A DNA stretch of 38,455 bases from Candidatus Omnitrophota bacterium (GTDB taxonomy: Bacteria > Omnitrophota > Gorgyraeia > JABMRN01 > RBG-13-46-9): contig JAFGLX010000021.1 in the NCBI GenBank assembly GCA_016927795.1, forward strand, positions 1 through 38,455, read 5' to 3'. This document shows, in pieces, positions 8,446 to 38,455 of this stretch. The notes under the pieces were generated by a model. That model was not told the DNA's origin. It was given only the letters and a program-made list of their open reading frames with translations, and did no database searches. How positions within the stretch are numbered: the stretch's first letter is position 1; every line of letters starts with the position of its first letter. Position numbers and translations under genes: made by a program.

Positions 8446-8508
8446 CGCAAGACATAATATATCATAAGAGACAGCAATCTACAAGTATTTAGCTGAACTA
8501 ACCTTAGT

Positions 8509-8548: not shown

Positions 8549-8631
8549 AAGTGGTTGCGACGTTAAAAATAAAAAAGTTAAATATGTATTACACTACTGT
8601 GACACTTGATATTGGCAATTATGATATATTC

Positions 8632-8656
8632 TTGATATTACCCGGGGTAATATAAT
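8632..8656 (+). promoter_or_regulatory. Weak promoter candidate for the giant ORF
   Basis: A perfect TATAAT (8651-8656) lies 58 nt upstream of ATG 8714. The nearest -35-like TTGATA (8632-8637) is only 13 nt away, which is suboptimal. A second TTGATA sits at 8606-8611. No Shine-Dalgarno precedes ATG 8714 (AAAAAAGAT-ATG). Confidence 0.25.
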
Positions 8657-8713
8657 GCAGTTATCATCACGATGATATTTTTTTGCCCGGTAGTTTAACA
8701 CTTTAAAAAAGAT

Positions 8714-8794
8714 ATGCTTAAAAGAAATATAATATTCAAAACAATATGCGTTATCCTTGTGGTAACGTTTATTTTTGAGAACATCCTGTGGGCC
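8714..8794 (+). other. N-terminal signal peptide or signal-anchor of the giant protein
   Basis: MLKRNIIFKTICVILVVTFIFENILWA: a basic n-region followed by about 18 hydrophobic residues. Confidence 0.6.
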
Positions 8795-11700
8795 GATCCG
8801 GAGATAGGGAAGCCCGATTATTTCCGCCGTAACACGCTACAGGTCCCGTCCATGTTTATACCCCGGACTGATGAGAAAATTCTCGAGGTTACGCTTAACT
8901 ACCTTATGAGCTGTCTCGACCTTCCTGATTTTAAAATCCCTCTGGAAGAGTTTAACTACCGCCTTACTCCCACTGTGGCGGGAGTAGACCTTGAGATGGA
9001 CTTTAGCCCGCCCGATGAGGACGGGAAGAAAAAAACAGGCAAATATAGAGAAGGTGAGAATTGGATTGTACCTTGTTCCACAACTTCACGACGCGGTTGT
9101 CGCTTATATGAAGCGGTCATAGACCCCGCTGGAAATGCTTCCCTTCGAAAACCGGGTATAAAAGACAAGGCGGAAGGAGAGAAAAAGGCACCGCTCGCAG
9201 GACATATAAAAACTACCATCGCGCAGCAAAAACCGAAAGAGCTTGAATTGCCGGACAAACTTCACAGGAAATGGTTAGCCGATTTGCCGCCGGATCCAAA
9301 AATAACAGAAAAGATAGATTGCTATACCGGAATAGTCGAATATTCGCGTTACATAGATACGTTGACCAAATTTATCGGCCGTCATTTAGCGAATATCGCA
9401 GTTTTTTATATCGACTATGAAGGCAAGCGCGTTTTTAAACCGGCTTCGCTATATAATCTTTTTATTTTACTTCCGGTAATATGCGAAAATCTAACCCCTC
9501 TGGTCAATTTACCGCTAATGCTTCGCAGGGAAAAGTCAAGAAAAGAGCAGGAGACATATGTCAAAGAAATATTGGAAGCTTCGGAATCGTTTAAAAAGCA
9601 TTTTGCCCTGTTAAAAGATATGTCCGAAAAAGACTTTTACGAGCAAGCGAAGAAAGCTACTCATAGAGGTACACGGGATGACCCCATACCATGGTCTGAG
9701 AGGAAAGAGCATTTCGTAAAGCTCGTATTCGTAGAAAACGAAAAAGCTTCTTATAACCGGTTCCTTTTCAAAGAATGCATCTTACGAATGGAGGCGGCTT
9801 TCGGAGAAGCGGAAAAACACATCGCCGAGCTTAAAAAAACCACCCCCGATCCCGGGTCGGAGGAGGTTAGAGGCGATGCGGGCGGAGCACGGGTACCGGG
9901 ATGGGTTGCGACAATCAATATGTTTTTAAGATCCGGAATTTTTACGCTGGCGCTGTCAGGCAAATTTACTTGGTTTCGCAAGTTTCGGGAAAGGCTCAAC
10001 GTCTTAGCGGGATGGTTATGGCAGGAAATATCACGATTCGAAAAACAGATGCGGCTAAATAGGCTTATATACACCAATCCAAACATAGTAATCTTGACGA
10101 CAAAAATCACATATGAAGAAAGATGCGCAATAGCAGATAGCTGGTACCATCTTAAGCGCCGCTACAACGAAAAAGCTAATATTATTCTTGCCAGACCGAG
10201 AGATGTCAAAATATATAATAAAAGAATTTATATAACAGGCGGTGCCGTAAAGAGCGATGAAGAATTACCGGAGAGTTTCGGCACGTTTAAAAGCGAAAAA
10301 TTTGCAAGACCCGCCGAAGTTCATTATCTATTCAACCTGCATGATATAGCGGTAAGAGATATTGAGAATGTGGACCTGCCGCTCGAGGCGAATAGAAAGA
10401 TGGTAAACTTTCAAGATGACAAAGAAGAGCAGGTGATGCTGGCTGGAAAAATAGGTATTCCCACAAAAAAGATCATCGGAACATTTCTTGTGTCAGACTT
10501 TGATATTTTAGGAGATAAAATAGAAAAAGTATTTGAAGAAGGGCCGGAAAGTTTGAGAAACAGAGTCAAGGCGGGCGAAAAATTTTATCTCCAGCCAAGT
10601 GACCAATCGCGAAGAAGGATTTCCTGCATTATAAGCAGTGAAGGAGATATTGAAACTGCAAAAAATATTATACTCGGAGCCCTTACGAGCGAGAGTGTCA
10701 AGAAAATGCTGGTGATGGAATATATAACTTCCATACGCCCTAGGGAGGAACTTGCAGAACGCGTTCAAGGACAACAAGATAGAGAACCCCAAGAACTTAT
10801 AAATGACGTACGCATACTGGTAACGCTAAACGACCGGACAGGAAAGCTTGAAATAGGGGCAGCAAAGGTTAATGTCGCAAGGGAGATAAGGAGACAACAA
10901 GAACTTATTCCTGACAGAATGAAAGCGGAGGTAATGACGGCGGAACTCGAAGGGCAGCTTTCCTTAGACAATTTTTTAGCTTATATGCCGCTGGCAGGGC
11001 GTAAAAAAACCTTGTTGAAAGACAGGATAATAGAAGCGGCCATAGAGTATGCCAGGGAAGCGTTTGCAGAGGGAAAGAGGTTTGATACACTTGCGGTGGA
11101 TTTTATTATTTCAGACAAGTTAGATGGTGACGGCGTGCCCGAAGTTTATTTTATCGAATGCGCGACGCATTTCAGCGGCGAACGCCAATATAATTCAATT
11201 ACCCAATACGGATTCAGGGAGAGGCATTTCGCTGTTGCGTGCTCAAGGGCGAAAGCATACCGGAATACTTTGCACCATAAAAGAGCGGACGACGGAAAAT
11301 CTGCCTACCAAGCGGAGCAGCAAGGTAATCCGAAAACCCTGCCAAATACTTTCATAAGATCATCGCATAAGGTTATATCTGGTGGTAAAACAGGTACTTT
11401 ATACACGGCGGACAGGGAGAAAAAGCGTGTTCCGGCCGAAACAAAATTTCCCGTCTGGATAAATACTGAAACTAAAGAAGTAAAGATAGGAGAAAAACCC
11501 GAAGGCGAAAATTGGTGCCCATACACCAGCCTTTTACAGATTTCCAGCCCGCCGGCAAAAAAAGAAAAAGACGCAAACGAGTTTTCTGTTAAATTCGCGG
11601 CGTTTTACGGCCCGCATGGACCCGTTATGCCTGTCATAGACGATAAGGATTGCCTTGAAGGAGGCAAATATTACAGGCAAGCCTTACTCGGCATTAAGAA

Positions 11701-14700
11701 GAAAAAAGGCTTTTTCAAGGGAATCATTCCTATTTTTAAAAAATTAATCAAAGAAGAGGGGTTGTCAAAAGAAAATATAGAGATAACGACCTCGCTATTC
11801 AGCCTGAATCCTATATATACCGCACAAATTTTATATGCGAAAAATGGGAAAAAAATCATAGTGATAAACAAGCCCTTTGTGAGCATGATAGCCTTCCAGC
11901 TAAAATACGGGTATGGGAAAATAACGCTTTCCGATAAAAGGTTAATAGAAGAATCCGGAACCGCAAAGAAAAAGCCGCGTTTTATAACATCAGACATTGT
12001 AACAAGTGAAGTCTATTCTATAGCGCTACATGAGATAAGAGCGCATATCCGATTAAACGAGCCGGAAGTAAAGGCCCAATACAGAAGGGGCAAAAATTAC
12101 AGAAATATAAATATCGCGGCAATAGCGTACTACTGGTCCCTGGCGGCCGAAGGATATGATGAATTGCGTATTAAAAGTTTCTTTGAGGACAACCCACATC
12201 TTGTAGCAAGCGCACTTTCCGCATACTACATAAACGAAATAGACAATATAGAAAAGCAGCGTAAGACGCACGACATCCCGAGGCCTATCCAATACGTTAC
12301 GGTAACTTCAGAGGAATGGATGGCATGGCGAGAGAAGTTTCCGCGGTACGCTGCCGGGTTAACTTCATACGAAGAAATGGCACAAGAGGCCAGCTATATT
12401 CTCAGTAATGAGGCAACGCCAAATGGCGAGACTGGAAGAATAGAGAAAACCTCCGCACCGGAAGCTGCTCACCAGGCAAGAATACCTTATCAAGTTCCGC
12501 GTTCGAAAAGGAAATTTGAGGAAGATATCAAAATAATTCCGCTTGGTGGCGTTGGCGGTTCGGGAGGGAGCTCTTTTTATGTGAAAGCCGGTAAAACCCG
12601 ATGGCTTTTTGACGCGGGACAGGGTGTCGGCGTAAATAGCACGTTTATGCCGCGCTTTGACCTCATAGATGACGGATTGGACTTTATCATAATAACCCAC
12701 GCGCACATGGACCATATAGGATGCTTACCGGAAGCGGTCGCATATTTCGGTGATATCCCAATCTATACCAGCAAAATTACAAAAACAAAAATCAGGCTTA
12801 TGCTGAATGATAGGCATTCGGTTAATGAACGCAGGATAAATCGAAAAATCCTGCCGGGAATCGAGAGTAAAAATACAGAACACGACATATGGTTAGTCGG
12901 CAAAAATATCCGGACAGTCAAGTCGAGTAAATTTTATACCTTAAACGGTGATATAGAAGACGTAAAAATTAAATTTCTGTCTGCCGGACATTTGCTCGGA
13001 GCAAATTCCGTGGAAGTCCATACGCCTTACGGCAACATACTCTACACCGGTGATTTTTCCGCTGCAAAAACACGTACGACAAAAGGCATAGAATCGCCTG
13101 AAACCGCACCGGATATTCTCATCAGCGAATCGACATATGGTGGCAGGCTTAGCAGTAGTTCGCGGGAAGGGCTTGAATATGAGCTGGCAAGCGCTGTTAG
13201 TCGGATTATCAGCGGTGAAGGCACGGTTCTTATTCCGTGTTTCGCTTTGGGCCGCTCTTCAGAGGTTACATTGGCCCTATATGACGCCCGCGAAAAAGGC
13301 CTTGTCCCCAAGGATATGCCGATTTACTTAGACGGGTTGGCAGGAACAATGTTTAGGCTTGATATGGAATCCTGGCATTTGATGCCTGATTTACCTCGGT
13401 TAAAATCAAAGAATATTTTTAGCCCTGAAAATGGAATATTCCGCGTAAGGACAGATGAAGAACGCAGGAAAATAATGAATGAACCATGCTGTATTATCGC
13501 GACATCCGGCATGATGATGGAAGGAACGCTTTCGGCAGATATTTATGCCCCCCACATTTTATCCAGTACTCGTAACGCGTTAATTTTAGTGGGCTATCAG
13601 GCGGAAGGAACGCCCGGACGTAAAATTTCGGAATTGAAAAGAGAGGCAACGATTATTTTAGGCGATACACGCATACCCGTCAAAGCAGAAGTCTTGAGCG
13701 TGCCCCTCTCCGGCCATGCCGGCCACGGCCAGATACTTAATTTTATAAAAGGGATAAACGCAAAGCGTGTTTTATTAGTTCACGGAGATGAGAGTGCCAG
13801 AAAGGCCTTACTGAAAGACTTATCTTTTTCCGGCGGCTCAATCGAAACACCTCAAGTGGGAGAGGAAATTGTTTTAGTGCCGGAAAATAAAACCCGCCGG
13901 AAGAAAGAATTCCGGCAAACAATCGCGTTTCGGCTTGAACGGATAAGAACTAAGCGCAAACCCGCGCAACCATTTCCGCGAAGAGTAAGGCTTACCAAAG
14001 AGGGGCAAGAGGCGGAGAAGAGAATAAGATTTGTCGCGGAATTGGTCGAGAACAAAGACGGATTTTTCAAATTTGGAGACACAGTAACCCATGAACATAG
14101 AGAGTGGGCGGAGCGTATTATAACTTATCTGGAGACCAAAGGGCTTCATATCGGTATGATACGGTATTTCTTCCAGGATTTATTTAAGAACTGGAAAGCG
14201 GCGGGATTACCCGTAATTTATCTTTACGGCAGAAATCCTGCGGAACTTTGGGATCTGCGCGAAAAATCGGCGGATGAGTTACGTACTGTAGCAAACATGT
14301 GGCGCAAAAAAGAGAATAAAGCGAGAATGCTCTTTAAGTGCGCCTTCTTCCCGCTGTGGCTTTTTTGGGTTAGCGGTAAGGTTTTTTTACGGGCAGCCAT
14401 TATAATTCTCAAGCCCCAAAGCCGGATGGATTCGACAAAATTATCCGGCCATAAAGACAGTAATAAAAAGAGAGAAACGTTACCATTAGGGTCCAAAGAC
14501 TTGACCGAAAGGATACGCGTAGTTATGGACTCCATAGAAGAAACAAGGCGTAGAGGTGAAAGACTTGCGGCTATAGCCGAAGAAGCGAAAAGAGATTCCA
14601 GTATCTGGGAAAGGTTAAAACATAGAGGGTTTGTCGAAATCGCGCTTATTACCGTATTAGTGATTGTCGCGGGAGCGCTTATATACTTTGTCAGTGCCGA

Positions 14701-17700
14701 TGTCGAAAATATAAGTAACGGCATGTTAGAGTATTTTACCTCAATAGGAGCAAATGGCAATTTGCCGAAGATTGGCATGGCATTACTCGCATATTTAGTT
14801 TTACTCGGCTCATTTACAGCCAATCTCGGTGATTCGCAAGGAGAGCCAGTAGATGACGAAAAAATAATCGATACCGCTAAATCGTCCTGGTCATATCAGC
14901 TAAAGAGCGCGAACCGGCCCGATTGTCTTACGGTAGACAATGAAGCGGCTATAAGAACGCGGTTAGAAAAAAGCGTATCTCACGAAACCAAAAAAATAGT
15001 ATATGATGCCTTTAAACAATTTCCTAACGATATCTATTGCCTGCCAAGGAAAATGCTTGGCAGGAGAAATGCCTATTTCAGCATGGATTACGGTTTCCTC
15101 TGTTTTGCGGATGAAACGTTCGCCGATATAGGCGCAGACGGAATAATCGGAATCCTGGGGGGAGCGACAAGCCTTTTTAACGAAGGCAGATACGAGGCTA
15201 TTAACGCGTTTTGTGATGAGAAAATAGCGGCTTATTCTGAAGAAAGGAAAGCCAAAGATACCGTTCCTGCCGTAGAAAAACCTGTTACGAAAAAGAAACT
15301 CACCGTGACTGCCCGGATGCCAGAAACGCCTCTTGAAGATTCCCCCGCGCAAAGAATGAAGCCCAAAAAGGTTACCAAACCCGCCGAAACACCCGTGATT
15401 TCGCAAACTGTAACTTCAGAAGCGACACCATCAAAAACACACCCTGCATATGCGCAGCCTGGCGCTGAAAAATCATCTATTCTCCCGGCCATCGTAGATG
15501 TAGGAGGCGGGGAAGACGGTACCATAACCGCGGCTGTACTAAAGATGCGCCTTGCTCATGACGTAGAACGTTTGCTAAAAGGCCGGGGGTGCAGAAATCA
15601 GTTCAGCGTTCGATATGGCCGTTTGACTAACACGGACATATCGGTAGAAGCCGACGTAAGCGATTTAAAAGAGCCTAAATTAAACCTCGCCATTATTTAT
15701 GCATGGGATGAATTAAGTAAGGATGCTCTTTTTAAAATAGCGGTTCTGCCTGACCCACGTACAATAGAGCCGTCCGCGGTGAGGTACAAGGCCGATTTTA
15801 CAAAATATGATGTAAAAACACGCCTTGATGAGGTTAATCCTGAAGTAAATAACCTTTTACCGCTATTTAGCGAAAAGGTAGACGTCTGGAGCAGTAAAAC
15901 AAACAATGAGAAATGGGAATGGTTGGCGGATATAGTTGCGTCATGCCGGAAAATACTGGAGGTACGGCACGGTAAAAGGGAAGATGTCGAGAAGCACTTT
16001 GAAAATTTAAAGCATGAAAACCCTGAACAGGCGGAGGAAATAGACCGGGCAAAAACCTTTATAACCGGCATAATAAAAAAGGAATATGAAGTAACTTTTA
16101 AAATACAGGAAATCATAGAGCGCATAATAGGTTTTGCGGTAAAAGATGAAGTACCGGGCAAATGGGTCAAACAAGCCTTTAATGAGATTATTCCTTTAAC
16201 AGAAAAATGGCCAAGACTCAATCTCGCTTTTAAATCCTATATAAAAATGATATTTTCGGATAGCAAGCCTATGTCTGTCCAAAATGTGGCGAACATGGCG
16301 AACGATCTAAGTAAAATATTGCGTAATGAGAGGATACGTGAAATACCGAATTGCGGGCTTTCGGGGGAGGCCCTGGAGAAATGCTATTATGACGCGGAAC
16401 GCCTGGCCCTTTTGGACATTATCGAGGGTTCGCCAGATGCGCAAACCAGCTTGCATAGAAACGGGGTTCTCGGTATTCTTAAAGAATTTTCCGCTTCTGA
16501 CCGCGTTCCGTCTTACCGCCTTCTTAAGTCTGCCGTTGACGTATGTTACGGCACTATAGACCTTGTAACTAACGAAGTGTTTACCGAACTTATCAGGGAA
16601 AATTCACATGTAGAACGAGAGGATATAAAGGAACTTGATATACCTCTGGGAGGAATGGGTATTCTAATTTTGAAAAAAGACCATTCTTCCGGAGAAGATA
16701 AATATAAAATAAAACGTTATATAGAAGGCGCAGGCAACCTTATTTATCCGACAATAATAAGCGCAAGTTACCAACCTTACTGTTTTAAAGGGGAAGAATG
16801 GTATGATAAAGGTGATGCAGCCGTATTTTTATATCCTTCTTGTGGGGAGTGCCCGAACATGGAACAAATGACGATGTTTATGGAGGATTATTTCTATTTC
16901 TGCTTGAGGACCTCGACCTTCCCCGATGTCATGATGGGGGCCGTAGATTCAAATGGAAACGTATTCGCCAGGCGTCTGAACATATCGCCGGGAGACATAG
17001 AAGACTGGTATAAGGTAACGCGCTACGTTACTATAGGTTGCGGGCTTTTTAACACAAGATTGAGAAGACCCCTTGAGATGGACCTTGCCGTAAAAGCATG
17101 CAACGACATTGAGGCTTTGCCCGTAGAAGAAGAAAGAGATAGAACGGGGGTAAGCGTAACATCCGGAGGACGCGCTTTCTCCTGGGAGATGAAAAAGAGT
17201 AAGTTTAGAAGTATCGTAACCCGCATCGTCGGCAGGATCAAAGGGTTTACTAAAATTTTAGAAAACGGTTTTAGAGCTTACGGAATTAGCAGGCGAAATA
17301 TAGAATCCCATCTTAGGGCAATACAAAGGCGCATTCCGGATGGATGGAAAATATTAAGCAATTTCGAAATGTACACGCCGGACAGAGCGCCAGATATGGA
17401 CCTCTTGGATGTGCAATTACCGCTTATCTTACATAAGCTTATTATAGCAACCGGCGAGGAAACAGCGCTTTATGCGTACAATAACAGGACATTTTTCGAG
17501 CCGGTTTTTCTGGAGAAGCTTTCCGCAAAAGATGAGGCGGGATGCAGAGAACGCCGGCAAGCGCAAAAGAAAAAAGAACGAAGGGAGACCGCTCTTACGT
17601 TGCAAGGTATACGGAAAACGGATATACATAACCCCGAAGAAGTAATCCTCGCCCTTAATAAGTGTTCCGACATGCTCGCAAACGGGATGGAACCCAAATT

Positions 17701-20700
17701 CAGCGAAGAACTTTGTAAAATACGCGCGCAACTTGCAGAAAAGTTTTTCTCAGTACTGCTTAAGGAAATTGATGACCTTTTTGAAGAATTTAAAAGCGGA
17801 AGGAACTTTGACACAGGCTCAATATACGGTTTACTGAATAGATGCAGAACTGCGCCGGAAATAGCCGTCTATAATGAAGGTGCAGAATCAGATTTACTGC
17901 ATCTGGTAGATATAGCTACGAAAAAATTAAGTATTATCGATATATATGCCGGAAGTAAAAACTATGCGGAGCATCTTCTGGAAATCGAGGAAATAAGCCC
18001 CGATGTTATAAATGAGGCTACAGGTTTTATACAAGAAGCCGATAGTTGTGTAGAAGGGCTCGATGAGGGAGAAGAGGCTCCGGTTTTAGACAGGTTTGCC
18101 GAACTTAAGAACGATTTTAGGGAAAAACTTAAATATTTGATCAGACACGACATGGAGAAGGTTTACGCGGACGGAAGATTGGCTGACACCGTCCAACTCG
18201 AAGACCTATCCAGGCTTCTATCGCGCCTTTCGCTTATGTGCGAGTTGTTTAAAAACATAAGCGAAAATTCAAGAATAGAGGAATATCGCCGTTTCGAGAA
18301 AATGCGGTTGATAACGCAAGCTGTTATGGAAAGAGAGGCCGCGTATAAGGCGTTAGAGGCGCAAGCGCCCGCAAAAATGTCTGAAGAATTGATGTTAAAA
18401 AGAGGCGAACAATTTTCGGTTTATCACCGCTATACGGGTAGAAGGGTGGACATAGTCTTCAACGGAATAATAAGAGAAACTATCCAAACAGGAGACTACA
18501 AAGGTAAAGAAATCCGGCTTGCCCATTTTACTGTTAAACCTCCTTATGGCTTTATCCCGGTAAGCGGCAACGAGCTGGCATATTCACAGCGCAAACGCGA
18601 AAACTGGCGTTATCCCGGATTGGAAAAGTCTCTTGCGGAACACAAAAAGGCCATAGATACAATGTATTCCTTTTTAACAGAACAAGAAATTAAATGTTCC
18701 GAGCGCCCGGGTAAGTCAGGTGTAAATAACCAGTTTTGGCTATTTGTCCCGAATATATTTGAAGAAATAATAAAAGACAAAAGTGTTGTTGCAGGAGAAA
18801 CAGATTCAGAGGGTTCGATACCATTCAGTAGAGTAGCCAGGGATGCCGGTTTATCGATAGAAATCAGTTTATTGCGCGAATCAAGCATAGGGGGTGAGGA
18901 AGTATATATAAATATATCTGATAAGTTAGACCAGTATGACTTCGAAGCGCTTGAGGTAAGCGCTCCAGTAGCAAGGACAAAACCGCGAGGAAAACCCGCG
19001 TCTAGGATTTCAACAGTAACCGGCGTATCAGGGGTATCCGAGAAAAAAAGCTTACATATTTCGGATGGAATACCGCAAATGGAAACCCCTTCCGATACCC
19101 CGAAGATGCGTTTTACAGACGACGACGAGAGGGAAGCAAGAGATTTCCAGCAGGGCAGAGGACGCTTCTTTAAGACACCGAAAATAAGAACTATACATAG
19201 GGCCGGAAAAAGAGCCGCAAAAAGAGATGATGCGCAACCCGCAAAGAAGGGGAGAAAAACCGGCGAAATCCAAGAATTACAACCATTTATTAACGACGTA
19301 CAAAGAATACTAACAGATGCGGGATATGAAAATGGGCTTAACGGACTTAGCCGTGTGGAAGAAAGAGAGCTTTTTGAAAAGCATACCGGAGAATCCGTGA
19401 ATCTTCTTGTCTACTCGCAACTTTTGTGGATTATAAAAATCGCGTGGTACTATTGCGAAAAGAATTATGGCGTACATATAATGGATTTAGTTCATAGCGG
19501 TATGGACACTGTAAGAAATATTTTGACCAATAAACATCCGTCTGCATCAAGGTTTGACCCGACAAAAGGCAAACTCAGCACTTTTACTACACAATTCATC
19601 CACTGGGGAATGATGAGTTTCCTCGAAAACGAAAACCGCCTCCCCAATATCGACGACTTTGCGTTTTTTGGAACAGGCAGGGATATTTCTTCTCTCGAAG
19701 CGTCACCGCTTCACAAGGAGAGGGTTAAGCAACTTTTTCGTTACCTTAATGACCGGGAAGAGGAGATAATAAAGTTATTTTTTGGGCTGAACGGCAACCC
19801 TTCATTGTCCACCGAGGAGATCAGCGTTCTTTACAGACATTGTATTTCTCCGGTTACTGTTGAGAAGAAAGTGAGTACAATTGTAACAAAACTCTGCCTT
19901 TTGGGAACAAGCGGCGAAAATTCTCTCAAAATACTTAACGAGGATGAGAAAAAACACCTTTTTTCGCTTAAGACAATCCGCATGGTAGAGGATTTCGTAA
20001 GTGACCCGGACAAAAGAGCGACTTTAGATCCACGCGATTGCGAGATTCTCGAATTGCATTATGGCCTTTCGGGTGAAAAGCCAATGGGCTTTCGGGAAAT
20101 GGGAGGGCGTTTTCATCTTAGCAAGACCCGCCCGTCGCAGTTGTGCGCAAGGGCAATGGCTAAAATAAGAGAAAGTTACGAATCTGCGTGGGAAAATATA
20201 AGTCGTTCAACGGGCATAACGGAAGAAGGCATGCGTGAGGCTTACGGCAGGGCAAAGGAAAAAATCCAGCCTAAAGACAGTCTTTTGAGGGCTGAGCGCG
20301 CGCTTCCTGCGTTGGACGAATTCGTATCGGAATTATCCAAAACGGCCCGTTATATCACTGAAAATATAGCCGAGCTTCTTATAGCGCACTATAATTTAAG
20401 GCATCCGGTCGACACTCTGGATTTCCACCAATATTCTATGCCGAAAAAGATAACCCTTGAAGGTGACGAGGAGCTTAACTTTGAAAATGTCGTGAATTTT
20501 ATAGAAAACAAGGAAGGATTGACGAGCTGGGAGGATATAGCCGGATATTTCAACGCTTCCGGCGAAAGGGTGACCGTCAGGCGATTAAAAAAGAACTTTT
20601 ACGCTAAATTAAAGGAATACGCCAATTCCCAGCGCGAAAAACACAGGCTGGGCGTCCCGGACGGCGTTATTCCCCTCGTCTATGACAGAAAATACACGGA

Positions 20701-26700: not shown

Positions 26701-29700
26701 GCTTGGGGAAACAACCGTGGCAAAGGCGCCGTCCAGCTCCGAGACCACAGAAGTAAAAAACCCGGCCCCGCCTATTGCAATAATCGCCATCGCGGCGCTC
26801 CCTGTTATCGGCAGATTATCCGTTAAATTATGGAAATGGGTAAAACGCGCTACAGGAATATTCAAGAAAACGGCCAAAATGACCAGGGCCGAGAGATATG
26901 TATTTAGACTCAAAAATGAGGCCCAGTATTTTTATGACAGCGCCGTAATGTCATTTGCGAACTCCTCCTACCTCGACGCGATAACTTCTTTTGAGAAAAG
27001 CGCCGATATTTATATAGAGTTACATGGTCTTGTTACGGACAACACTGTTTTTAGTGAAAAATTGCGCGCGATAGCCAAAACACTCAAAGAAATTTTAGAT
27101 TACATAAGTAACGAAGGGGATTATGAAGAGTGCCTGGGGGCGCTGCAAAAACTTTCGGGTATGCAGAAAAGGACGGGTAAATTATCCAATCTGCTTTACT
27201 TAGTCAAAACAATCGCGGGAATGAACGAGAATATAATATCAGCACGCATACAAAGAAGGCTTATGAGTAAAGACGTAAGTTGGAAAGTAAGATTTGACGA
27301 GAAAAATCTTAAAATAGGCGACGCGGTTCTGGATAGGCGTTTTCGTATGTTGCTTTTATACAAAGGCCGCTTTCGCCGAAAGTTAACAGGCATGGCATCA
27401 AGGAAAAGGGCGCACCAGCTAGATTCACCGACGGGACATCAGAGTTTATCTATAAACAGCTTTTCGCAAATAGGGTTACTAAAATTTTTGTTACTTAGAC
27501 CACCCGCATCCTTCTCCCGGGAGTCGGAGAAGGAAGAACCGTCCGCAAAAATATCGAGTTATGTAATTAAGCTTATTGACGAAAATACGGCGGATGCCAG
27601 AATTGTGTTGTGCACCCTTCTTGAGCATAAAGATATAAGCGATACCGTAAAGGGGGTAATCATAACATATGCGACCGGTCCGGAACATGAGCCGATAAGG
27701 GCCCTTCTTCCATCCGTGCGCCACGCCGATAATAACGAAGACGCTCCCGATGACTTCCCCGGCACCAAACGTTACTTTATGACACCGCGAAAAAAACCGA
27801 AGCGGCCATCCAGAAAACCGCCTACCACCGCCAACCCCGGGTTGGAGGTGGTTAGACCGCTAGCCTGGCCGCAGGCACCTGTGGAAGTGTTAACGCAGAC
27901 GGATACAGGTATCTTTCCAAACGCATTGTGGCATGGGAGCGAAGTAGAATTTAATGTTATAAGAAAAGCATTGGGCTTATCCATAAAGGAGTATAGAGCC
28001 GCCCTTAATGCTGGAAAACCTAAACCGCTATCGCCGGTGACAATGGATGTTTATTTGCATCGCAGAAAAAATCCGGTTCCATATTTACACCTTGAATGGG
28101 CACGCAAGCTGTATGCTCAGAACGCCCCGCGCCGGCTTGAGGTATTGCTTAAAAGGCGCAATTTAACCGTCGAACAATTTACAGCCGAGCTTGGCGAAAG
28201 CGGTATTACTGTATACGTGTACGAGATAAAAGAGATGCTGGAAAATAAAAGGCCTGTCCCATATGAAATTTTGATAACCGCAACCAAGAACGACAGTGAA
28301 AAGTCAGGCCCTTTATTTGACAGGATATACCGGTGCTCAAAGCTGGTAGGAATAGAATTCAGTGAGAAGGTAAGCCCCGGTTCGCCTTTACCGAACTATT
28401 ACATGTATGAGATGAGAAGTGGTAAGCGGCCGATTCCCGATGAAATTATGCTTAATGCCCTGAAGCTAAACGTATCTTTGCTGGGCGAAGGTATTACTCA
28501 ATCTTCGCAGTTGCAATCCGAATCGGACGATGTAATACCGCCGGCAGTACAGGGACTGGCGGAGCAGGAAGATACGGCCACGATAATAAAGCAAGATGGT
28601 TTGCCGATTAAGAGCGTATCCGCCGCGGCAAAAAGCGGCGAGTTGCCGGTTGAGAGCGAAAAAAGGCCTATAAAATTTGAATTTCTCGAGGTAGGCCAGA
28701 TAATTACGCTTGGCGGTAGGGACTATAAAATTCTACGCCGATACTTTGCCCATGATAACCATAAATGGATAAAATTAGTGGAGGACATAAAGACGCACGA
28801 AATTTTTATTATCAAAGGTTTCAACAAAGACCATATAGATACCATAAACGCGCTGAGAAATTTACAACACCCCTGCCATGCTAAAATAATTAAAGTGTTC
28901 GAGCCGGAAGGTGCCTTTATGATGCCCGACTATGGAGCAGAAACATTTATCGACCATATATGCCAAAGCGCGGATGAAGGTTTGCCTTTGAAAGAGTGGC
29001 TTTCGGCGAGAGTAAACGAGGTAATATGGCTTTTGGAGGCCATTAAAGAAATGTCCGAAATCGGCAGAGACCATGGCGATCTATTGGATAAAGAACACCA
29101 TATTTTATATTCTGACGGCTTGCCGCACATCGTAGATTATCATATCTCTTCCTTATCCCGAGACCACTCCCGCGATCTTCACGGCATTATTTTGCAGGCA
29201 GAAGAGATAGTACGTACGGCAGAAGCAGCCTATGGATCGGGCGTTCCAGGGACGGGTATTATAGAAGAACTTGGCCGAATATTGGACGATATGAACGGCA
29301 GTTTTGAGCAGACTTTTACAAGAAAAAATGCCGATGAATTTATAAATATTCTGGCACAGTATCTCGATTCTATCGGTATGAAACGCATATCGGCCCAATC
29401 CGTGCTGACGCAGCCCGATTTACCCCCGCATTCGGAAATAGTTACGACTGTTTCTGAACCGATAACGCGGGTTGTCATAATTCCTGCCGGCGGCGTGGAA
29501 TTGCTCAAGCCGCACCAGCCCCCGCTTGAAAGATATAGTATAGAAGACGATGAAAATCTCGGCGAGTGGAGCGGCGGATTACCGGAAGGGGTAGACAAAA
29601 AAGGGTCAGGTAGCAAGCAGGAGGAGTTGGACAAGCCGCTTGGCATTGAACTTGTACCCGGCGTATTTGTACTTGAAGACGCAGTAAATACCGCGCTTGC

Positions 29701-32700
29701 AATGATATATCCTTCAGAAGAACTTCGCAGCAGTGTATTCAGGCCGATGAGCCCGCAGGATTACGACAGATTTCTAGAATTTATACGGCAAGGAGACAGC
29801 AATCTTTATTCCCTTGTTGATAAAACCGCCAAAGGCCTGCGAAGGCTCAACAGCGTATTGCAGCGTTCAATGGCGCTTGCTTTTATAAGTAAAGGAGGTC
29901 TCCTGCAAGATACTAACGCCATACGGCTTAAATTCAAGAGATACTCTTTCGCGGCGGCAGTAAATAATCTTTCGGCAGATGACTACAGATTATTTTATGC
30001 CTATTTTTCATCTCTTTTCGGGCGATGGTGGCAGGAGGCGGCGCCGGAATCTTACGGAAGGTTCATAAGCGGTTTGGAGTATATTGCCGAACACGATGTA
30101 CCACCTGGTCAACGCGAGCGCTTTAATGAAATTGTGACGAGGGTAAAGACGGACGCCGAGCAGCTTTATAAGCTTATGATTCATAATTTCGTACACCATT
30201 TCGGGGGCCGGATTCTGCCTCCCGAGCATAAAGATCCGCTGTCCGGCGGCCTGAGCGGCGAATTGCCGGATGCGGGATCCGAATGGCCAATTACATCTGG
30301 TAGCAGTGGTTATGACTTGCCTACAAGCGTGTTTAATGGCCTTATGGTAAAGCTTCTTGCGGCAGGTTTTGATGAAGGCCAAGCGCAATTGGTTATTTCG
30401 CAATTGTGGCTTGACGCGAATGTGGAGGATTGGAATAAGGCATACGAGATTATGAATCTTCTTATTGATATTATGGTCGTTGCAGGATTATCGCCGCGGG
30501 ATTATAAGGCATTGAACCAGCTATGGGATTTACATTGGAAGAGTTATAAAGAAAAAATGCCGGCAGAGTGGCTAAGAAAAATAAAAGAGGATCTCAGTAC
30601 AATCCCGGTGGAAGAGAGAAAAAATGTTATTGAGAATGTGCCAATTTCAGGTGCTAATTTAGAATTGGTTGGCAGGTATGGCTTAGCTCGCGCAAAGGAG
30701 GCATTCGGGATATCTGGAAAAGAATCGATCGATGCGGATGAAAGAATAGAAAGTAAGGCACTTGTAGCGGATGCTGAAACAGGAGAAAATATTCCTGCTA
30801 CATTTAGCGTTCGAGCGGATAACAGAGACGAAGAAAGCATTTATATCAATTATAAAAGAAGCCCAGATTTTCCGGGATTTAGCGGGTATTTAAAAACCAA
30901 GGTAGATAGAGAATGCATGTATGTAAGTGAGATTAATTCGCAAGAGTGGGATAAGTTGGATACGTCCGCCAAGTCCAAGATAACCGATTGGAGACAAAGA
31001 TTATTAGATGAAGCTATTAGGTGCGCCGGGGAAAGAGGATTGAAAAAAGTCGTCATTGCGCCCTACTGCGCATACAGGCTTATAGGCGGCTGCTCGGTTT
31101 ACAGAGGATATAAGGATTTTACCAGTTTGCCTTTCGAAGCAGGTTTTAAATTGAGAGTTTATGACGAAAAAACATCTTTTAGCGTGCGCGATAAGCATAT
31201 GGCCTCATATATGTTATGGGAATTAGATCTCACGGGGACTGATGCGAGGCCCGTTTCAGATAAAGAAGATAGCGGAGATATTTCAAGACGGGATCTTATA
31301 ATGCCTATATTGGCAGCTCTCGGTATAACGCTAGCGGTATTTTCAAAAGGTCGCGCTCAAGGATTGGAGTTGGACCTTAACGATAAAATAAATGACCAGA
31401 CCGAAGGACGATGCCCTGAAAGTGTAAAGATCGCCATAAACGACGCGCTGAACACGATTACGCGCAGACGCGATATGAGGAGTTATCAGATAGAACGCAT
31501 AGACATAGTTAACGCTGATGGCGGAGGGTTTAATGTTAAATTCGTTGTTAATACACGAAATGGCAGGCCCGAACCTCCATTCACAGACGTCCCGTTTACC
31601 AAACAGGATTTGGCAGACAAGGAATTATTGCAGAGTAAGATTGACCTTGTAACACGCAATATCATCGGCAGAGCATATTTGCCGGTCGAAATAAAGGGAT
31701 TGAAATATATTCGCCACTTAGCCATGAGTTTAATCTACGCTATCATCCCCGCACTTATAATACTTGTTTTAAGAGACGCATTCAGAAGATATCGCGCCTA
31801 TGTTAATTCGCAGAGAGAATCAGAGGCGCTAAAAAGAGAGCATGATTACCAGAAGCGGCAGGCCGACCGCCACGCGGGCTTAACAGACCGGAGCGCTTCC
31901 GATATCAGAAAACGTCGTCGAGGATCCATTATTTTTGGAGAAGATTCAAGAGGCACCTCTCGCGGCAAGGATATATCTCTCGCATTGCCGGGAAAGAAAT
32001 TCGACCTGTCGCCAAGAGACGTAGCGGAATGGCCCCCAATGATAAGGGAATTATTAAGTAAAAAACATAGAAAAATCTGGGAATGGGAGGAGCTTCTCGG
32101 GGCACTGGCCGGTTATTTCCCGGAAGGCCTTGCCACGCCCGAGAATATCGAAAAGATAACAAAAGGCACATTGAAAGCCAAAACCATAAAGTCTGCCTTG
32201 CGCGCTTACGGCATCAGGGAGAAGGTGGGAATTGCAGGCGAAAGGCGTTCAAGGGATGAATGGATAAAGGTTTTGAGAGTCTTATCCGACTTGTGTCCGG
32301 AAGGCGTTCGCACACCCGCGGATATAGCAAAAATTATCCAAGGGTATCTCACGGAAGAACAAATAATAAGCGTGATAAGGCGCCATAAGCTGACATATGA
32401 AGAGACAGGTATTGTGCTTTCTTCTGGTAAACCAGCGGAAACCATTACGGATGCAAAATCCGGATTTGGTAAAGAGAATAAAATCGGCCCCGGGCCGATG
32501 ATGATAGCGCTTTTCGCGATACCGTTTTTTGTGCGCATGTGGAGGCGGTTAACCCGAAATATCGACGGGAGAATAGAACTACCCCCGCTATCCGGCGGTG
32601 GGGTGATTTGGAGAATGCTTCGCACCATTCTGCCGGGCGCATTCGGCCTTTGGGCCGTTCCGCCGGGCAAGCCGGATATGCCGGAAAGGAGAAGCGGTCA

Positions 32701-35700
32701 CGGATTTGCGAAACCTACCAAGAAATTAATTTCTATAGAAGAGGCAAAAAGTCTGAAGCTAAGATATGAACGAATACAGTTATTGGCGCAGAAATTTATT
32801 AATGATTGCGAAAGAGCATCAACGCCTGACGAGATAGTGCAAGCTCGTCAGAAATTTTTGGCGCTAGAAAGCCAGCTTGATCTTATATACGAGGCTTTTT
32901 CGGATATGGATCAAGCCGGATATATTGGTCTTAAAGAATATGTTGACAGCGTAACTGATATGATAAAGAGAATCAACACTGCCTTTCGGATACGTATATT
33001 ACCTTCCTTAAAGGATATTAATGAGGCGGGTTTAGAATCGGCAAAGGAGGAGGACTTTGAACGCACTTTGCTTATGGAGGAAAAAAGTTTGTTGGATAAC
33101 GAATCAATCGCTACCCATAAAACCGGCATCCCAGGAGAGAGCGTCAAATCCGATCAGGTAGTTACAGCACTGGTTGTCGAACAACCGCAGGGCGTTGAAA
33201 TAACGGAGGATATTTCGTTTTTTGATCGAAATTCACAGATGGCACTATATAGCGTCGTTGATGATCTGGAAGTTGTTACTCCTAATATGCTGGTCGCCAG
33301 ATTCGAAGTTTGTGACTATTATTTGCCTTATGAGGTAGTAAAATGGTTATGGCGGCGCAGCCAGCATAATAAAATTCTTTCACGCTTTTTGTTATTATAT
33401 GAAGATTATATGAAACGCGGAAAACCTCAAGAATCTCCAGGCACGGACATCAATATTAAGGATACTTCTGCCTATCAGGACGCGGTGTATCATTTAAAAA
33501 CAGCTCATTGGACAAAGCCTGGATATTGGAATGAAGTCAAGCCGGAGGTAAAAAGAGAACTGATAATACAGGCCATGAAAGAACATCCTTTCGGTTTTGG
33601 CATGTTTGCAAAACCCCTGATATTCCTGAATGGAGGCAACCTCAGGGGGTTATATGCTTATTATAAAGCTAAAGTGGTTACTTCGAAAAAAGGCGGCAAG
33701 ATGGCGCGCTTTGCCGCATTGGACCTCATTAGAAGTGAACTGAATATTCCGGAACCAAAACAGGGCATTCCTTACGAAGAAGTAATCGCCAAGTTAAAGA
33801 AGAAGAAACGGGTTATCTGGCGTTGGGTAAGGCCCGATGTGCAGAAGAGGCTTATACAGGATATGTCCGATGAGCTCGGCAAAGATATCAAAGATTTCGA
33901 TTCGAGCTGGTTTATAGCGACCGTAGATAATAAAGTCCATATGTGTATATATAAAAAATTCGGAGGAGCATCCCTAAATGGTCTTTATCAGTATTATTGC
34001 CGCCTTTACAAGGATCCGGCAGGCAACTTGCCAGTCATAGATATAATGCGAAGTCGCCTCGGCATAGGTATAAAAAATTATACCTTTGAAGAGATGATTT
34101 CGGGATGGCGACAGGGTAAACTTAAAGATATTAGATGGCGCCACGTGCCTTCGGCTGTAAAACGGCAGGTACTTTTTACGCTCGCAGACAAATACCAGAC
34201 GCCTCCGGCAGCGCTTTTTGTCAGCCATCTTGTAGGCGGGCTTGAAGGGGTGTGCCTGACTCAGCTGCTTTATCCATATATGAAGAGAGGCAGAACCGCC
34301 GCAAGAGCATTCCTGCAGTTGAAAAAGGATCTTAAGATACCATCGTTGGATGTAGAATATGTCCTCAAATGTTTCAAGGAGAAAAAAGCGCCTTATTGGA
34401 AAGGTGTTTATTCGAAAGAAGTGCGGCGCAAACTGGTAGAGATGCTTGCGACAGCGTTGGGAATATCTCCGGAAAAATTGATGGCAGGACATTTTAAAAA
34501 ACAGTTACCTGTATTTTTTGACAGGTCGCTCGCTGGCTTAGCCGGGCAATATCTAAGCACAGACGGAGCGTTTGGAGAACCCGAAGTATCGGATCTTCTT
34601 AAAGACGTGGGTATTAAGCGAGTCAGGGAAACAACATTTGAGGAGTTCGAGCGATGCATTGAATCTGGTAGAGAGATTAATTGGAAGAACATGCCGGTGA
34701 GCATTAGACGCGAAGCCATAAAGTTTATCGCGAATAAAATAGGTATTAAACCGATGGATCTGAAAACTAATATGCGTGACAAATATGGAAGTAAAATCGG
34801 CGGACTGGTTGCGGCTTATGCGCGCGAGAATAATCTATCACCAACACTCGAGACATGCAGGCAGATGTTGCGTGACTACAATGCCGGTGATCTTCTTGTA
34901 GAGCAGATTATGCAGGAGATACAACCAGTTCGTTATACAAGGGATAATTATGAGTTGCGGATGGCTCAGTGGAATAGGGCAAAACCAAAGATCGAAGAGG
35001 CGATATCCTGCGGGATGGGAAGCAAGCTTGGCACATCGCTTTGCTCATTGCTTTTTAGCACAGACTCACATGAGCGTGCAATGCGCTTTGAAATATTAGG
35101 CTATCTTCAAAGAATAGATGCCCCGGGATGTACCAGCCCGCTCATTAATTTCATTAGCAAGATAGGCACAGGAGACGTTGAATTATGGAGAGAAAGCAAT
35201 AGAGCATTAGGAAACGTAATGACGGATAACGAAGTGATAATGACTTTGAAAAATATGGCCAACAGTGCTGAGGAAGAAAATAGTGAATCTGCCTCGCGAG
35301 CAGGCTCCAGAAAGGTGTTTAAAAGACGGATTAGATACAATCGAAAAGGTGGGCTGCATATGTATATGAATGGTTCGGTAAAATCATGGCCAGGCGCGAC
35401 ACCCGTCGGGCCTGAGAAACAGCCGTTTATGGATGCCCAGACCCCCGGTCAATTCCCGCCGGACATGGACAATAATGTGGGGCACGGCCAAGGATTTGTA
35501 AAAAGGGTTGAACCACCTGTGGACAGAGGTGATGTTGCATCTCCAGCCGGGCCTCAACCGGTATCCGCATCCGGCGACGCTACTTCGCCAGCAACGGAGG
35601 ACAGTTCGGAGCTTCGCGCGGCGGTGGACAAAAAAAGAGAACCACCTCCATTATCCGGCCCCGGACCTATGATGATAGCGCTTTTCGCGATACCGTTTTT

Positions 35701-38455: not shown

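Follow-up and report, generated by a model that had tools for sequence, protein, structure and literature searches.

The window, i.e., the whole 38,455-nt stretch of DNA that was analysed, contains a flank of housekeeping and cell-wall genes and one giant ORF, which occupies about three quarters of its length (Table 1). Neither tandem repeats nor tRNAs, rRNA or Rfam matches were found in the window. On the minus strand, a GGAGGGG sequence at position 114 precedes a gene which runs off the left window end.

The frame of ATG 8714 is free of TAA, TAG and TGA between 8699 and 38455 (29,757 nt). From the ATG to the last base there are 38455−8714+1 = 29,742 nt, that is 3 × 9,914: the last base of the window completes a codon before any stop is reached, and the ORF has at least 9,914 codons. 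After it, the longest run without a stop in any of the frames has 1,755 nt (1787–3541, an AsmA-like gene), and the other five frames are interrupted within the giant-ORF region, where the longest listed antisense ORF has 229 aa. The first-pass annotation, which had proposed a single ORF of this size continuing past the window, is thus borne out. An in-frame TAA lies five codons upstream of ATG 8714 and, as the five codons in between include no start codon, translation cannot begin ahead of ATG 8714, which in the alignments corresponds to residue 1 of the homologs. The same annotation had described a hydrophobic N-terminal leader and the absence of a Shine-Dalgarno sequence, and both are found (the sequence upstream of the ATG is TTTAACACTTTAAAAAAGAT).

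Table 1. Features of the giant ORF (window positions; aa, residues of the product)
Feature	Residues (aa)	Position (nt)	Strand	Basis
Giant ORF, 3' end beyond the window		8714..38455	+	Stop scan, codon statistics, composition
N-module	1-160	8714..9193	+	35-50% identity to relatives' N-termini; HMM score 165 bits
Conserved module without assigned function	~190-375	9281..9838	+	Weak matches inside P0055, P0068, P0069, P0070
D3 copy 1 (TTPDPGSEEV), immediately 3' of the aa 190-375 module		9841..9870	+	Self-comparison
Module 2, putatively ATP-grasp-like	~452-860	10067..11293	+	25-35% identity to P0016, P0021 module
Module 3, IAIHEIRAH (HExxxH) motif	~930-1260	11501..12493	+	Homologous internal modules elsewhere
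Predicted MBL/beta-CASP/RMMBL ribonuclease domain	~1259-1720	12488..13873	+	Pfam, NCBIfam, PDB
Three predicted transmembrane helices	1873-2038	14330..14827	+	Kyte-Doolittle
D2 copy 1 (RFTDDDEREARDFQQGRGRFFKTPK), 21 aa ahead of the sigma-like segment		19109..19180	+	Self-comparison
Sigma-70-like segment	~3511-3828	19244..20197	+	Pfam Sigma70_r4, NCBIfam sigma70-ECF, PDB 1tty
D2 copy 2 (VRFTTDKEEEARAFQQGRARFFKTPR)		21842..21913	+	Self-comparison
HATPase_c-like segment, weak	~4462-4573	22097..22432	+	Pfam HATPase_c E 0.0026
D6 copy 1 (PDAGSE), 13 aa past the HATPase-like segment		22475..22493	+	19/19 nt identical to copy 2
Polytopic membrane block, ~10-11 predicted helices	~4596-4972	22499..23629	+	Hydropathy
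Predicted GH77 4-alpha-glucanotransferase (amylomaltase) domain	5198-5730	24305..25903	+	Pfam, NCBIfam, PDB
D3 copy 2 (TANPGLEVV), palindromic		27826..27855	+	29/30 nt identical to copy 3
D6 copy 2, 12 aa ahead of the aa 7205-7505 module		30266..30284	+	19/19 nt identical to copy 1
Conserved module without assigned function	7205-7505	30326..31228	+	24% identity, E 2e-17
D1 copy 1: predicted transmembrane helix GPGPMMIALFAIPFF, then W(R)W and basic residues		32485..32573	+	Self-comparison
Two diverged ~170-aa repeat units	8326-8498, 8524-8680	33689..34753	+	25% identity, E 4.5e-7 (self-comparison)
D1 copy 2		35656..35744	+	Self-comparison
D3 copy 3		35746..35775	+	Hairpin z-score -3.9
Cluster of ~4-5 predicted transmembrane helices	9058-9204	35885..36325	+	Hydropathy
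D1 copy 3		36817..36905	+	Self-comparison

The codon statistics of the ORF are those of a coding sequence and match the flanking genes. The codon-position pattern is unbroken along its whole length: of the 20 segments of 1.5 kb, 18 show GC1>GC3>GC2, and the exceptions, at 11714 and 34214, have GC3 marginally below GC1 or GC2 close to GC3. The RSCU of the ORF correlates with that of the flanking genes in frame (r = 0.81) and far less out of frame (0.44 and 0.24). The nine flanking genes terminate with TAA, TGA and TAG, which indicates the standard genetic code without stop-codon reassignment, and an alternative code was rejected on these grounds. The tetranucleotide signatures of 5-kb segments of the ORF correlate with the flank (0.78–0.95), a homogeneity on which a foreign insertion or a chimera was rejected. 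It is strongly supported that the giant ORF is one genuine, unbroken gene, longer than 29.7 kb and truncated by the window end.

Two explanations would deny this. It is very improbable that the ORF results from the assembly, either by the joining in frame of two or more giant genes or by the loss of a stop or a frameshift through consensus collapse. Misjoins at repeats may occur in short-read metagenome assemblies, the ORF does contain exact repeats of 19–36 nt, and no independent copy of the flanking proteins or of the 3' end was found in public collections (an exact 53-nt search with the 3' end of the window had no match in JGI metagenome contigs, and the exact products of the amidase and fumarase alpha genes gave none when looked up). 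However, these repeats are far shorter than typical assembly k-mers plus read overlap, the frame is unbroken across every repeated cassette, a random join preserves the frame only one time in three, and the ORF is even along its length in codon-position GC, codon usage and tetranucleotide signature, in agreement with the flank. It is extremely improbable, too, that the long frame is used like an operon, internal translation starts giving rise to separate proteins. A GTG with GGAGGA 5 nt upstream is found 30 aa ahead of the GH77 domain, and comparable content is divided between two adjacent very large genes in relatives. On the other hand, base composition predicts about 606 in-frame stops by chance (the probability of finding none is ~1e-272), and their complete absence from 9,914 codons is explicable only by selection for read-through. 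Five in-frame starts in the 9,914 codons have a Shine-Dalgarno sequence ahead of them, about the chance level, and internal initiation was rejected because these counts do not differ from chance.

The 9,914 aa were scanned with Pfam in two staggered tilings (E ≤ 0.01–0.1). Three domains are predicted with confidence: a beta-CASP ribonuclease, a sigma-70-like segment and a GH77 amylomaltase. The ribonuclease domain matches Pfam Lactamase_B, Beta-Casp and RMMBL, NCBIfam aCPSF1 (E 1e-72) and PDB 2xr1 (E 1e-46), and the motifs HxHxDH, GH, GD, SGH and HGD are conserved in the alignment with 2xr1. It is of the aCPSF1/CPSF73 type and has no KH domains. The sigma-70-like segment is composed of an ECF-like region 2 followed by a region 4 and by a second region-4 helix-turn-helix; the Sigma70_r4 match is above the cut-off (E 3e-7), that of NCBIfam sigma70-ECF below it (E 1e-8). 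The GH77 domain covers the full Glyco_hydro_77 profile (E 8e-86; NCBIfam E 3e-80; PDB 2owc E 5e-41) and its catalytic triad appears intact, the Asp of RxDH, the Glu of EDLG and the Asp of THD being aligned with those of 2owc.

Two assignments are weaker. Module 2 may be ATP-grasp-like: its homologs include stand-alone proteins of ~480 aa (P0016, P0021), and Pfam ATPgrasp_YheCD is matched by 2 of 10 members of the module 2 family (best E 2.3e-5), the copy in the window having no Pfam match. The HATPase_c-like segment scores 18.6 bits, below the cut-off of 26.4, over profile positions 5–107 of 111, and an N-box and a DNGEG motif are visible in it. Module 3 resembles internal modules of proteins of 1,000–4,700 aa (31–44% identity over the module, 45–52% in the best local stretches). 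It has no match in Pfam or among PDB sequences, nor does its AF2 model (pLDDT 73.5, pTM 0.76) have a Foldseek match in the PDB. The module at aa 7205–7505 matches aa 2464–2761 of a 3,897-aa gene which follows the relative P0003 in L001.

Curated thresholds are exceeded in only three regions, none of them beyond aa 5,740. The final 4,165 aa have no match among 5.8 billion protein clusters, and about 70% of the product is without detectable relative. The claim of catalytic motifs along the whole length must therefore be corrected: a string of enzymes is apparent from sequence for the first 5,740 aa only. Several guesses made by eye found no support in the domain scan, i.e., a protein kinase-like region (aa ~6660–6830), which was dropped, a GNAT assignment for aa 7205–7505 and helix-turn-helix regions (aa ~6385–6600 and ~7700–7925). 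Comparison of the protein with itself, in chunks of 250 aa, revealed only short cassettes and the one diverged ~170-aa pair.

About 30 transmembrane helices in ~12 clusters, roughly one per 330 aa, are predicted from hydropathy (Kyte-Doolittle, 19-aa window ≥1.6, with no trained predictor). This density agrees with that reported for Omnitrophota long proteins, about one helix per 350 aa (10.64898/2026.06.07.730766). By the countable helices, the ATP- and RNA-dependent modules are not all on one side of the membrane; published topology predictors disagree for giant proteins of this kind. That the product is a mosaic, membrane-threaded megaprotein is strongly supported.

The first 160 residues form a module with a basic N-terminus and a hydrophobic helix which ends in a conserved ...F.(E/Q)N.LWA(N/D)PE. 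The module also carries TLQVPS as a motif, and Cys121 is invariant in its small alpha/beta domain. Homologs of this N-module are found in ~38–50 other large proteins, in every case at residue 1. Its AF2 model (pLDDT 84) has no fold match in the PDB. The pattern was not found in IMG/VR viral contigs, and a profile search with a four-sequence alignment of the module returned only three short fragments. Its closest relatives come from three MAGs, of which one is labelled Omnitrophota and the other two Planctomycetia, a hint to the lineage of the giant protein.

The complete relatives (842–6,334 aa) end in a second module of ~210 aa (..YYPL.EIVTI..RYARL..). An HMM of this C-module matches 25 of the N-module proteins, always at the extreme C-terminus, but matches nowhere in the 9,914 aa of the giant ORF, which indicates that the giant gene extends past the window. 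No internal N- or C-module was found in the HMM scan, and a head-to-tail fusion of family members was rejected on this basis. Profile-versus-PDB, Pfam and Foldseek (PDB) searches with the N-module, the C-module, module 2 and module 3 gave nothing significant, except the weak ATP-grasp link of module 2.

Between the two ends, family proteins have a very variable string of modules. Twelve relatives carry 50 different Pfam families, which include HATPase_c and Sigma70_r4 as well as methyltransferases and TPR. The giant ORF has the N-module at residue 1 and a variable multi-domain cargo (beta-CASP, sigma-like, HATPase-like, GH77, modules 2 and 3). It is the longest member seen and exceeds the longest complete relative at least 1.5-fold. 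Sequence comparison strongly supports its membership of a small and rare family in which the N-/C-module frame is fixed and the interior highly variable.

Ten copies of four kinds of short in-frame cassettes (D1, D2, D3 and D6) lie between the modules. None of the ten is inside a homology-defined domain, and 5 of the 10 are within 0–25 aa of a domain edge. D1, D3 and D6 show a codon identity well over the expectation from codon usage (12–13 of 14 codons for D1, compared to 4.8 expected), and every copy of D3 folds into one common hairpin shape. D2 (RF..FQQGR.RFFKTP), on the contrary, is conserved as a peptide and not at the codon level. The D3 cassette had no match in JGI metagenome contigs. 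Relatives have their own gene-specific linker repeats, e.g., ENHGMSQGED, which occurs ~7 times in P0014.

The cassettes could be taken as cleavage sites: one chain would be translated, and a protease, encoded in it or separate, would then cut it at these junctions to release the single enzymes and membrane proteins. Such a polyprotein appears possible but rather unlikely. The position of the ten copies between modules, the peptide-level conservation of D2, expected of a recognised peptide, and the repeated linker peptides of the relatives all speak for it; the conserved HExxxH of module 3 could be a metallopeptidase site, and West-Roberts et al. brought up the possibility that C39/S8 domains cleave other giant proteins (10.1101/2023.11.21.568195). 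However, no recognisable protease domain was found, module 3 having no match by Pfam, PDB sequence or fold and HExxxH being missing from 2 of its 9 homologs. The cassettes are of four unrelated kinds, not one cleavage motif, and the DNA-level conservation of D1, D3 and D6 points to recent duplication or gene conversion and not to selection on the peptide.

A bolder reading starts from the DNA-level identity seen in three of the four cassette kinds and from the conserved hairpin/palindrome of one. The fixed N- and C-modules and the gene-specific cassettes would make up a cassette-built protein system, in which modules are inserted or swapped at the repeated seams and the chain is then handled by a dedicated export or processing route recognising the leader, the C-module and the D2 peptide. 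The giant ORF would be the largest known instance of a bacterial modular polyprotein or effector string; we consider this speculative and unlikely.

The best explanation, and a probable one, is that one giant gene encodes a membrane-threaded multi-enzyme chain, framed by the family modules, targeted by its leader and jointed by cassettes. The leader would act as a Sec/SRP signal or signal-anchor which directs the ribosome, during translation, to the cytoplasmic membrane. Hydrophobic helices further along the chain, including the three copies of a repeated cassette, would stitch it repeatedly through the membrane, and the enzyme modules may thereby be kept together in one membrane-tethered array instead of being free proteins. 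The short in-frame cassettes would mark the joints, which are likely seams for the gain or exchange of modules. Going by the literature, the array might serve a lifestyle dependent on a host or on prey, as has been proposed for Omnitrophota.

The MARTX, multifunctional autoprocessing RTX toxins of Vibrio, have conserved ends around variable, strain-specific enzyme modules. The family of the giant ORF is like them by analogy of design only, as it combines conserved N- and C-regions around variable modules with a very large polypeptide; no relationship of sequence or fold between MARTX and the giant ORF was found. Following this analogy, the N- and C-modules could be an export or translocation frame, and the enzymes in the middle would be delivered to the surface or to a host or prey cell. 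This is quite improbable. The fixed ends do flank a hypervariable cargo of normally cytoplasmic enzymes, the leader resembles a signal peptide and might be cut by signal peptidase behind its conserved WA, and Omnitrophota giant proteins have been proposed in the literature to act on prey. Yet the RTX repeats and the cysteine protease domain are absent from the ORF, secretion genes, type I included, are absent from the 8.7-kb flank, neither terminal module matches a known secretion signal or fold, and, unlike in MARTX, there are many internal transmembrane helices (~30), which favour retention in the membrane of the producer.

Omnitrophota and allied lineages have some of the largest proteins known, giant multi-enzyme membrane proteins whose role and synthesis are not understood. 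The giant ORF on its own is a further example of an already catalogued class. What the family adds is a compact signature, a leader and a closing module with new folds or without PDB match, which unites mosaic proteins from 842 to more than 9,914 aa. Its smaller members (~850 aa) are small enough for expression and localisation, two cargo enzymes with apparently intact catalytic residues, the predicted beta-CASP ribonuclease and amylomaltase, can be assayed, and the repeated seams between modules are concrete sites to examine for cleavage or recombination.

As the first-pass annotation had noted, the giant ORF lacks the features of megasynthases and repeat adhesins. An NRPS or PKS was rejected since no condensation, adenylation, PCP, KS, AT or ACP domains were matched (Pfam, NCBIfam), and a giant adhesin (Ig-like, cadherin, RTX, TSP3/dockerin) since tandem DNA repeats and such Pfam matches are absent. 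Its placing outside all the usual giant-protein classes is, on the other hand, out of date: thousands of proteins of at least 10,000 aa of the multi-enzyme, membrane-anchored type are already catalogued, and the class has been described (bioRxiv 10.1101/2023.11.21.568195 and 10.64898/2026.06.07.730766). The suggested resemblance to giant mixed enzyme/transmembrane proteins of Omnitrophota holds for the architecture, and relatives of the leader occur in Omnitrophota and Planctomycetia MAGs.

West-Roberts et al. described the Archaeovorin type, whose type sequence is a giant protein of Velamenicoccus archaeovorus; such proteins exceed 30,000 aa and most have a SecA_DEAD/SecA preprotein-binding domain (10.1101/2023.11.21.568195). 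The giant ORF is similar in its many transmembrane regions, its N-terminal region free of known domains, its highly divergent domains and the mixture of glycoside-active with other enzyme domains. It differs in its length, at least 9,914 aa, and in that of its complete relatives. Pfam found no SecA_DEAD in the 9,914 aa, and the 3' remainder could still carry one; HEAT/TPR, glycosyltransferase (GT5/GT1), methyltransferase, NUDIX and C39/S8 domains were not found in the same 9,914 aa either.

The "multi-enzyme metabolic cluster" (class 1) of Nielsen and Lui (2026; 10.64898/2026.06.07.730766) comprises proteins of ~10,000 aa and more, in which different enzyme domains are tiled and none dominates. 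The giant ORF differs in having only four to five recognised domain types and in the genes beside it, as its flanks lack the type II secretion, pilus and GH2 genes reported beside the largest giants. The frame of N- and C-modules and the junction cassettes are not described in that study either. Its length reads as at least 9,914 aa, with the frame still open, compared to the 10,000 aa that delimit the class. As in class 1, no domain dominates: its MBL/Beta-Casp/RMMBL, Sigma70_r4 and GH77 domains occur once each. It has, likewise, an N-terminal signal or anchor helix and ~30 further helices (from hydropathy only), HATPase_c (a weak match here) and sugar-metabolism domains are among the shared cargo, being common in that class, and it is sequence-unique, as are the Omnitrophota long proteins of that study, 80% of whose clusters are singletons. 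The giant ORF is thus a large new example of the known class of multi-enzyme, membrane-anchored giant proteins.

The plus-strand frame that contains ATG 8714 has no TAA, TAG or TGA from position 8699 to the last base of the window (29,757 nt), as the first-pass annotation had claimed. In a six-frame stop scan, the runner-up among the open runs of all frames measures 1,755 nt and belongs to an ordinary flanking gene. A TAA lies five codons upstream of the ATG with no start codon in between, so that ATG 8714 is the first possible start; 9,914 codons follow, and the frame is still open at the window end, which falls on a codon boundary. About 606 in-frame stops are expected from the base composition (probability of none about 1e-272). 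The absence of this ORF from the ORF track, also pointed out earlier, is explained by the ORF lister, which requires a stop within its source and therefore returned only short antisense or out-of-frame ORFs (229 aa at most) in this region. The genetic code is standard, since the nine flanking genes stop at TAA, TGA or TAG.

The coding signal is uniform along the giant ORF. The order GC1>GC3>GC2 is seen in almost every one of its twenty 1.5-kb windows, is broken in none, and is also that of the flanking genes. The codon usage (RSCU) correlates with that of the flanking genes in frame (r=0.81) better than out of frame (0.44 and 0.24), and the tetranucleotide signatures of 5-kb segments correlate with the flank at 0.78–0.95. 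Tandem repeats, tRNAs and Rfam families were searched for in the window and none was found. The giant ORF is thus one continuous gene. That an assembly artefact created it is very improbable, given the uniform composition. A series of internally initiated genes hidden in the frame is likewise very improbable, because sites that combine a Shine-Dalgarno sequence with a start codon number only five, which is the chance level.

When the first 5,000 aa were used as a query, only five weak matches were obtained, all to very large multi-enzyme proteins; three are confined to the first ~150 aa and align N-terminus to N-terminus with about 40% identity. An exhaustive comparison of aa 1-1200 with 1.84 billion representatives, made with HMMER, matched just 67 proteins and resolved three independent modules (N-module, module 2 and module 3, see table). 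The N-module matches always start at residue 1 of the relative, and its HMM detects it in 52 of the 75 proteins collected; sequence comparison thereby places the giant gene in this family by its leader. Module 2 also occurs as stand-alone proteins of ~480 aa. Module 3, which has a conserved IAIHEIRAH motif, is 31–44% identical, across the aligned module, to internal modules of other proteins of 1,000–4,700 aa (up to ~52% in the best local stretches).

The relatives share a closing C-module of ~210 aa, whose HMM matches 25 N-module proteins, always at the very end. Complete relatives with this module have 842–6,334 aa, and the giant ORF already exceeds the longest complete member found by a factor of at least 1.5. 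The 9,914 aa read do not include the C-module, which suggests that the gene very probably extends beyond the window end. Neither an N-module nor a C-module is detected internally, so that the gene is not simply several family members fused together. The cargo carried between the terminal modules is highly variable: 12 relatives contain 50 Pfam families, including methyltransferases, TPR, HATPase_c, Sigma70_r4, FBP aldolase, formate/nitrite transporter, MutS_V, PALP and RidA.

The AlphaFold model of the N-module (pLDDT 84) consists of two helices (2-27 and 52-68) and a five-stranded sheet. Neither this model nor that of module 3 (pLDDT 73.5, pTM 0.76) has a match in the PDB according to Foldseek, and the profiles of the N-module, modules 2 and 3 and the C-module retrieved nothing from PDB and Pfam beyond the weak ATP-grasp link of module 2. 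The DNA that encodes N-module relatives comes from three MAGs, one titled Candidatus Omnitrophota and the others uncultured Planctomycetia; no N-module relative was found in viral contigs. In two loci (L001 and L007), the gene with both terminal modules has another very large multi-domain gene close behind it, and the one in L001 opens with the same leader in diverged form (...FFLDTISWAYP). L001, from a MAG labelled Planctomycetia, also has a small gene with a magnetosome-protein match, ~5 kb upstream of the gene for the relative P0003.

Coordinates of the features in the window, in the giant product (aa) and in two related loci
Feature	Position	Description
Gene with strong Shine-Dalgarno (- strand)	GGAGGGG at 114; start near 98	leaves the window at its left end
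PilZ gene	119-769	
Coiled-coil gene	750-1553	20-nt overlap with PilZ gene
Palindrome	8508-8549	perfect, 42 bp; 21-nt arms, no spacer between arms
Giant ORF (+ strand)	8714-38455	at least 9,914 codons
N-module	aa 1-160	leader
Module 2	aa 452-860	ATP-grasp-like, weak: ATPgrasp_YheCD matched by 2 of 10 homologs; window copy without Pfam match
Module 3	aa 930-1260	
MBL/beta-CASP/RMMBL ribonuclease	aa ~1259-1720	aCPSF1/CPSF73/Cas14 type without KH domains; NCBIfam aCPSF1 E 1e-72, PDB 2xr1 E 1e-46
Sigma-70-like segment	aa ~3511-3828	Sigma70_r4 above Pfam cut-off
HATPase_c-like segment	aa 4462-4573	weak: E 0.0026, below cut-off; profile almost wholly covered
Helix block	aa 4596-4972	~10 helices (hydropathy scan)
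In-frame GTG	24215 (aa 5168)	GGAGGA 5 nt upstream
GH77 4-alpha-glucanotransferase	aa 5198-5730	full-length; Pfam E 8e-86, PDB 2owc E 5e-41
Duplicated units	33689-34753 (aa 8326-8680)	two of ~170 aa, 25% identity
Cassette D1		transmembrane helix, GPGPMMIALFAIPFF..W(R)W; 3 copies
Cassette D2		RF.D..E.AR.FQQGR.RFFKTP[KR]; 2 copies and one weak
Cassette D3	9841-9870, 27826-27855, 35746-35775	T(A/P)(N/D)PG(L/S)E(V/E)V, palindromic; 3 copies
Cassette D6		PDAGSE; 2 copies, 19/19 nt identical
L001 small gene	4976-5167	63 aa, Pfam MamI match
L001 gene pair	10001-32855	4,284 aa, then 3,897 aa within 98 nt
L007 gene pair	417-17258	3,573 aa, then 2,033 aa within 19 nt

Three regions are identified with confidence, in agreement between two staggered Pfam tilings, NCBIfam and sequence searches of the PDB: the ribonuclease, the sigma-70-like segment and the GH77 domain. 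In the alignments, the beta-CASP domain keeps all its motifs (HxHxDH, GH, GD, SGH, HGD) and the GH77 domain all its catalytic residues, namely the nucleophile Asp (RvDH), the acid/base Glu (EDLG) and the third Asp (THD). In the sigma-70-like segment, an ECF-like match that runs from region 2 to region 4 stays below the cut-off, and region 4 occurs in a second copy. The product thus reads as a mosaic of modules, two of which are predicted to be enzymes with intact catalytic residues. The GTG located 30 aa before the GH77 domain could in principle start a stand-alone amylomaltase.

The first-pass annotation had described catalytic motifs along the whole length; this is only partly true, since no relative was detected for the ~70% of the protein outside the confident and weak calls. 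The last 4,165 aa have no match among 5.8 billion protein clusters. This orphan C-terminal part contains two diverged units and, around them, shorter related stretches, as if an unknown domain had been duplicated internally long ago. A hydropathy scan gives about 30 candidate transmembrane helices in ~12 clusters (~1 per 330 aa). The number of helices counted between the RNase/ATP-grasp block and the sigma/HATPase block is odd, which does not fit with all of them being cytoplasmic; disagreement between topology predictors is similarly reported in published work on such giant proteins.

Protein self-comparison in 250-aa chunks and a DNA repeat search revealed four kinds of short in-frame repeats (D1, D2, D3 and D6). 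In D1, D3 and D6, identical residues share codons far above the expectation from the gene's codon usage (12–13 of 14 in D1, versus 4.8 expected), which points to recent duplication, gene conversion or a constraint at the nucleotide level. There is no such excess in D2 (11 of 19, versus 7.6), which looks like a conserved peptide. The D3 palindrome is CCAACCC-N-GGGTTGG flanked by CACC/GGTG; all three copies have the same hairpin shape, the pairing in copy 1 being kept by compensatory change on both sides, and the hairpin is clearly more stable than shuffled sequence only in copy 3 (z -3.9). D3 also holds a Shine-Dalgarno-like run, GGAGGTGG; the only usable start codon suitably spaced behind it is a TTG at aa 9023.

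None of the ten cassette copies lies inside a homology-defined domain, and five are 0–25 aa from a domain edge (behind the aa 190-375 module and the HATPase-like segment, and ahead of the sigma-like segment and the aa 7205-7505 module). Such a placement is unlikely by chance (P about 0.01–0.04, a rough estimate). The cassettes form repeated seams between modules. Other large relatives have their own, different linker repeats: P0014, a protein of 4,662 aa with a module 3 homolog, carries (S/T)SP.(E/H)NHGMSQGE(D/N) about seven times along its length. That repeat, much more regular than those of the giant ORF, looks like a candidate processing site. Cleavage of the giant chain at its cassettes, as in a polyprotein, is doubtful: no protease was recognised in the product, and the cassettes fall into four kinds unrelated to one another.

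The 8.7-kb flank encodes a PilZ protein, a coiled-coil protein, an AsmA-like protein, RdgB/Ham1, RNase PH, a split class I fumarase (beta and alpha subunits), MurI and an Amidase_3 cell-wall amidase, a housekeeping set that befits a diderm bacterium with peptidoglycan. It contains no secretion or pilus genes. The latter fact and the many transmembrane helices make it quite improbable that the product is an exported string of effectors framed by the terminal modules. The giant gene and the amidase gene diverge from a 268-bp spacer which contains the palindrome. Its RNA form has a folding energy of -48.4 kcal/mol (z -8.2); it is unlike an intrinsic terminator because no T-run follows on either strand, and its role may be that of an operator or of a 5'-UTR element. 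The giant gene has no Shine-Dalgarno sequence, as noted before, and neither do several flanking genes.

In the explanation proposed here, the leader would be a Sec/SRP signal or signal-anchor, with the conserved ...LWA(N/D)PE, cut after LWA, as a possible signal peptidase site. The chain would be inserted co-translationally, with many stitches through the membrane, its modules would act as a membrane-tethered array, and the seams would record module gain or exchange. A tie to a host- or prey-dependent lifestyle may be supposed from the Omnitrophota literature only.

The resemblance to giant Omnitrophota proteins of mixed enzyme and transmembrane content, mentioned in the first reading, is borne out: the architecture fits the published "multi-enzyme metabolic cluster" class (bioRxiv 10.64898/2026.06.07.730766), with the same transmembrane-helix density, an N-terminal signal, mixed enzymes and a sequence-unique character. 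The Archaeovorin type (bioRxiv 10.1101/2023.11.21.568195) is a looser match. Its hallmark SecA_DEAD, HEAT/TPR, glycosyltransferase, methyltransferase and NUDIX domains are missing from the 9,914 aa read, as is a secretion-gene neighbourhood from the flank, and the giant ORF is therefore assigned to the broader class and not to the Archaeovorins. Neither preprint mentions junction seams or terminal modules. More than 5,700 proteins of at least 10,000 aa are already catalogued, so this ORF adds to a known kind rather than founding a new one; within that kind, the frame of terminal modules, the junction cassettes and the two folds without a match, all recognised by sequence analysis, appear to be undescribed parts which merit follow-up.
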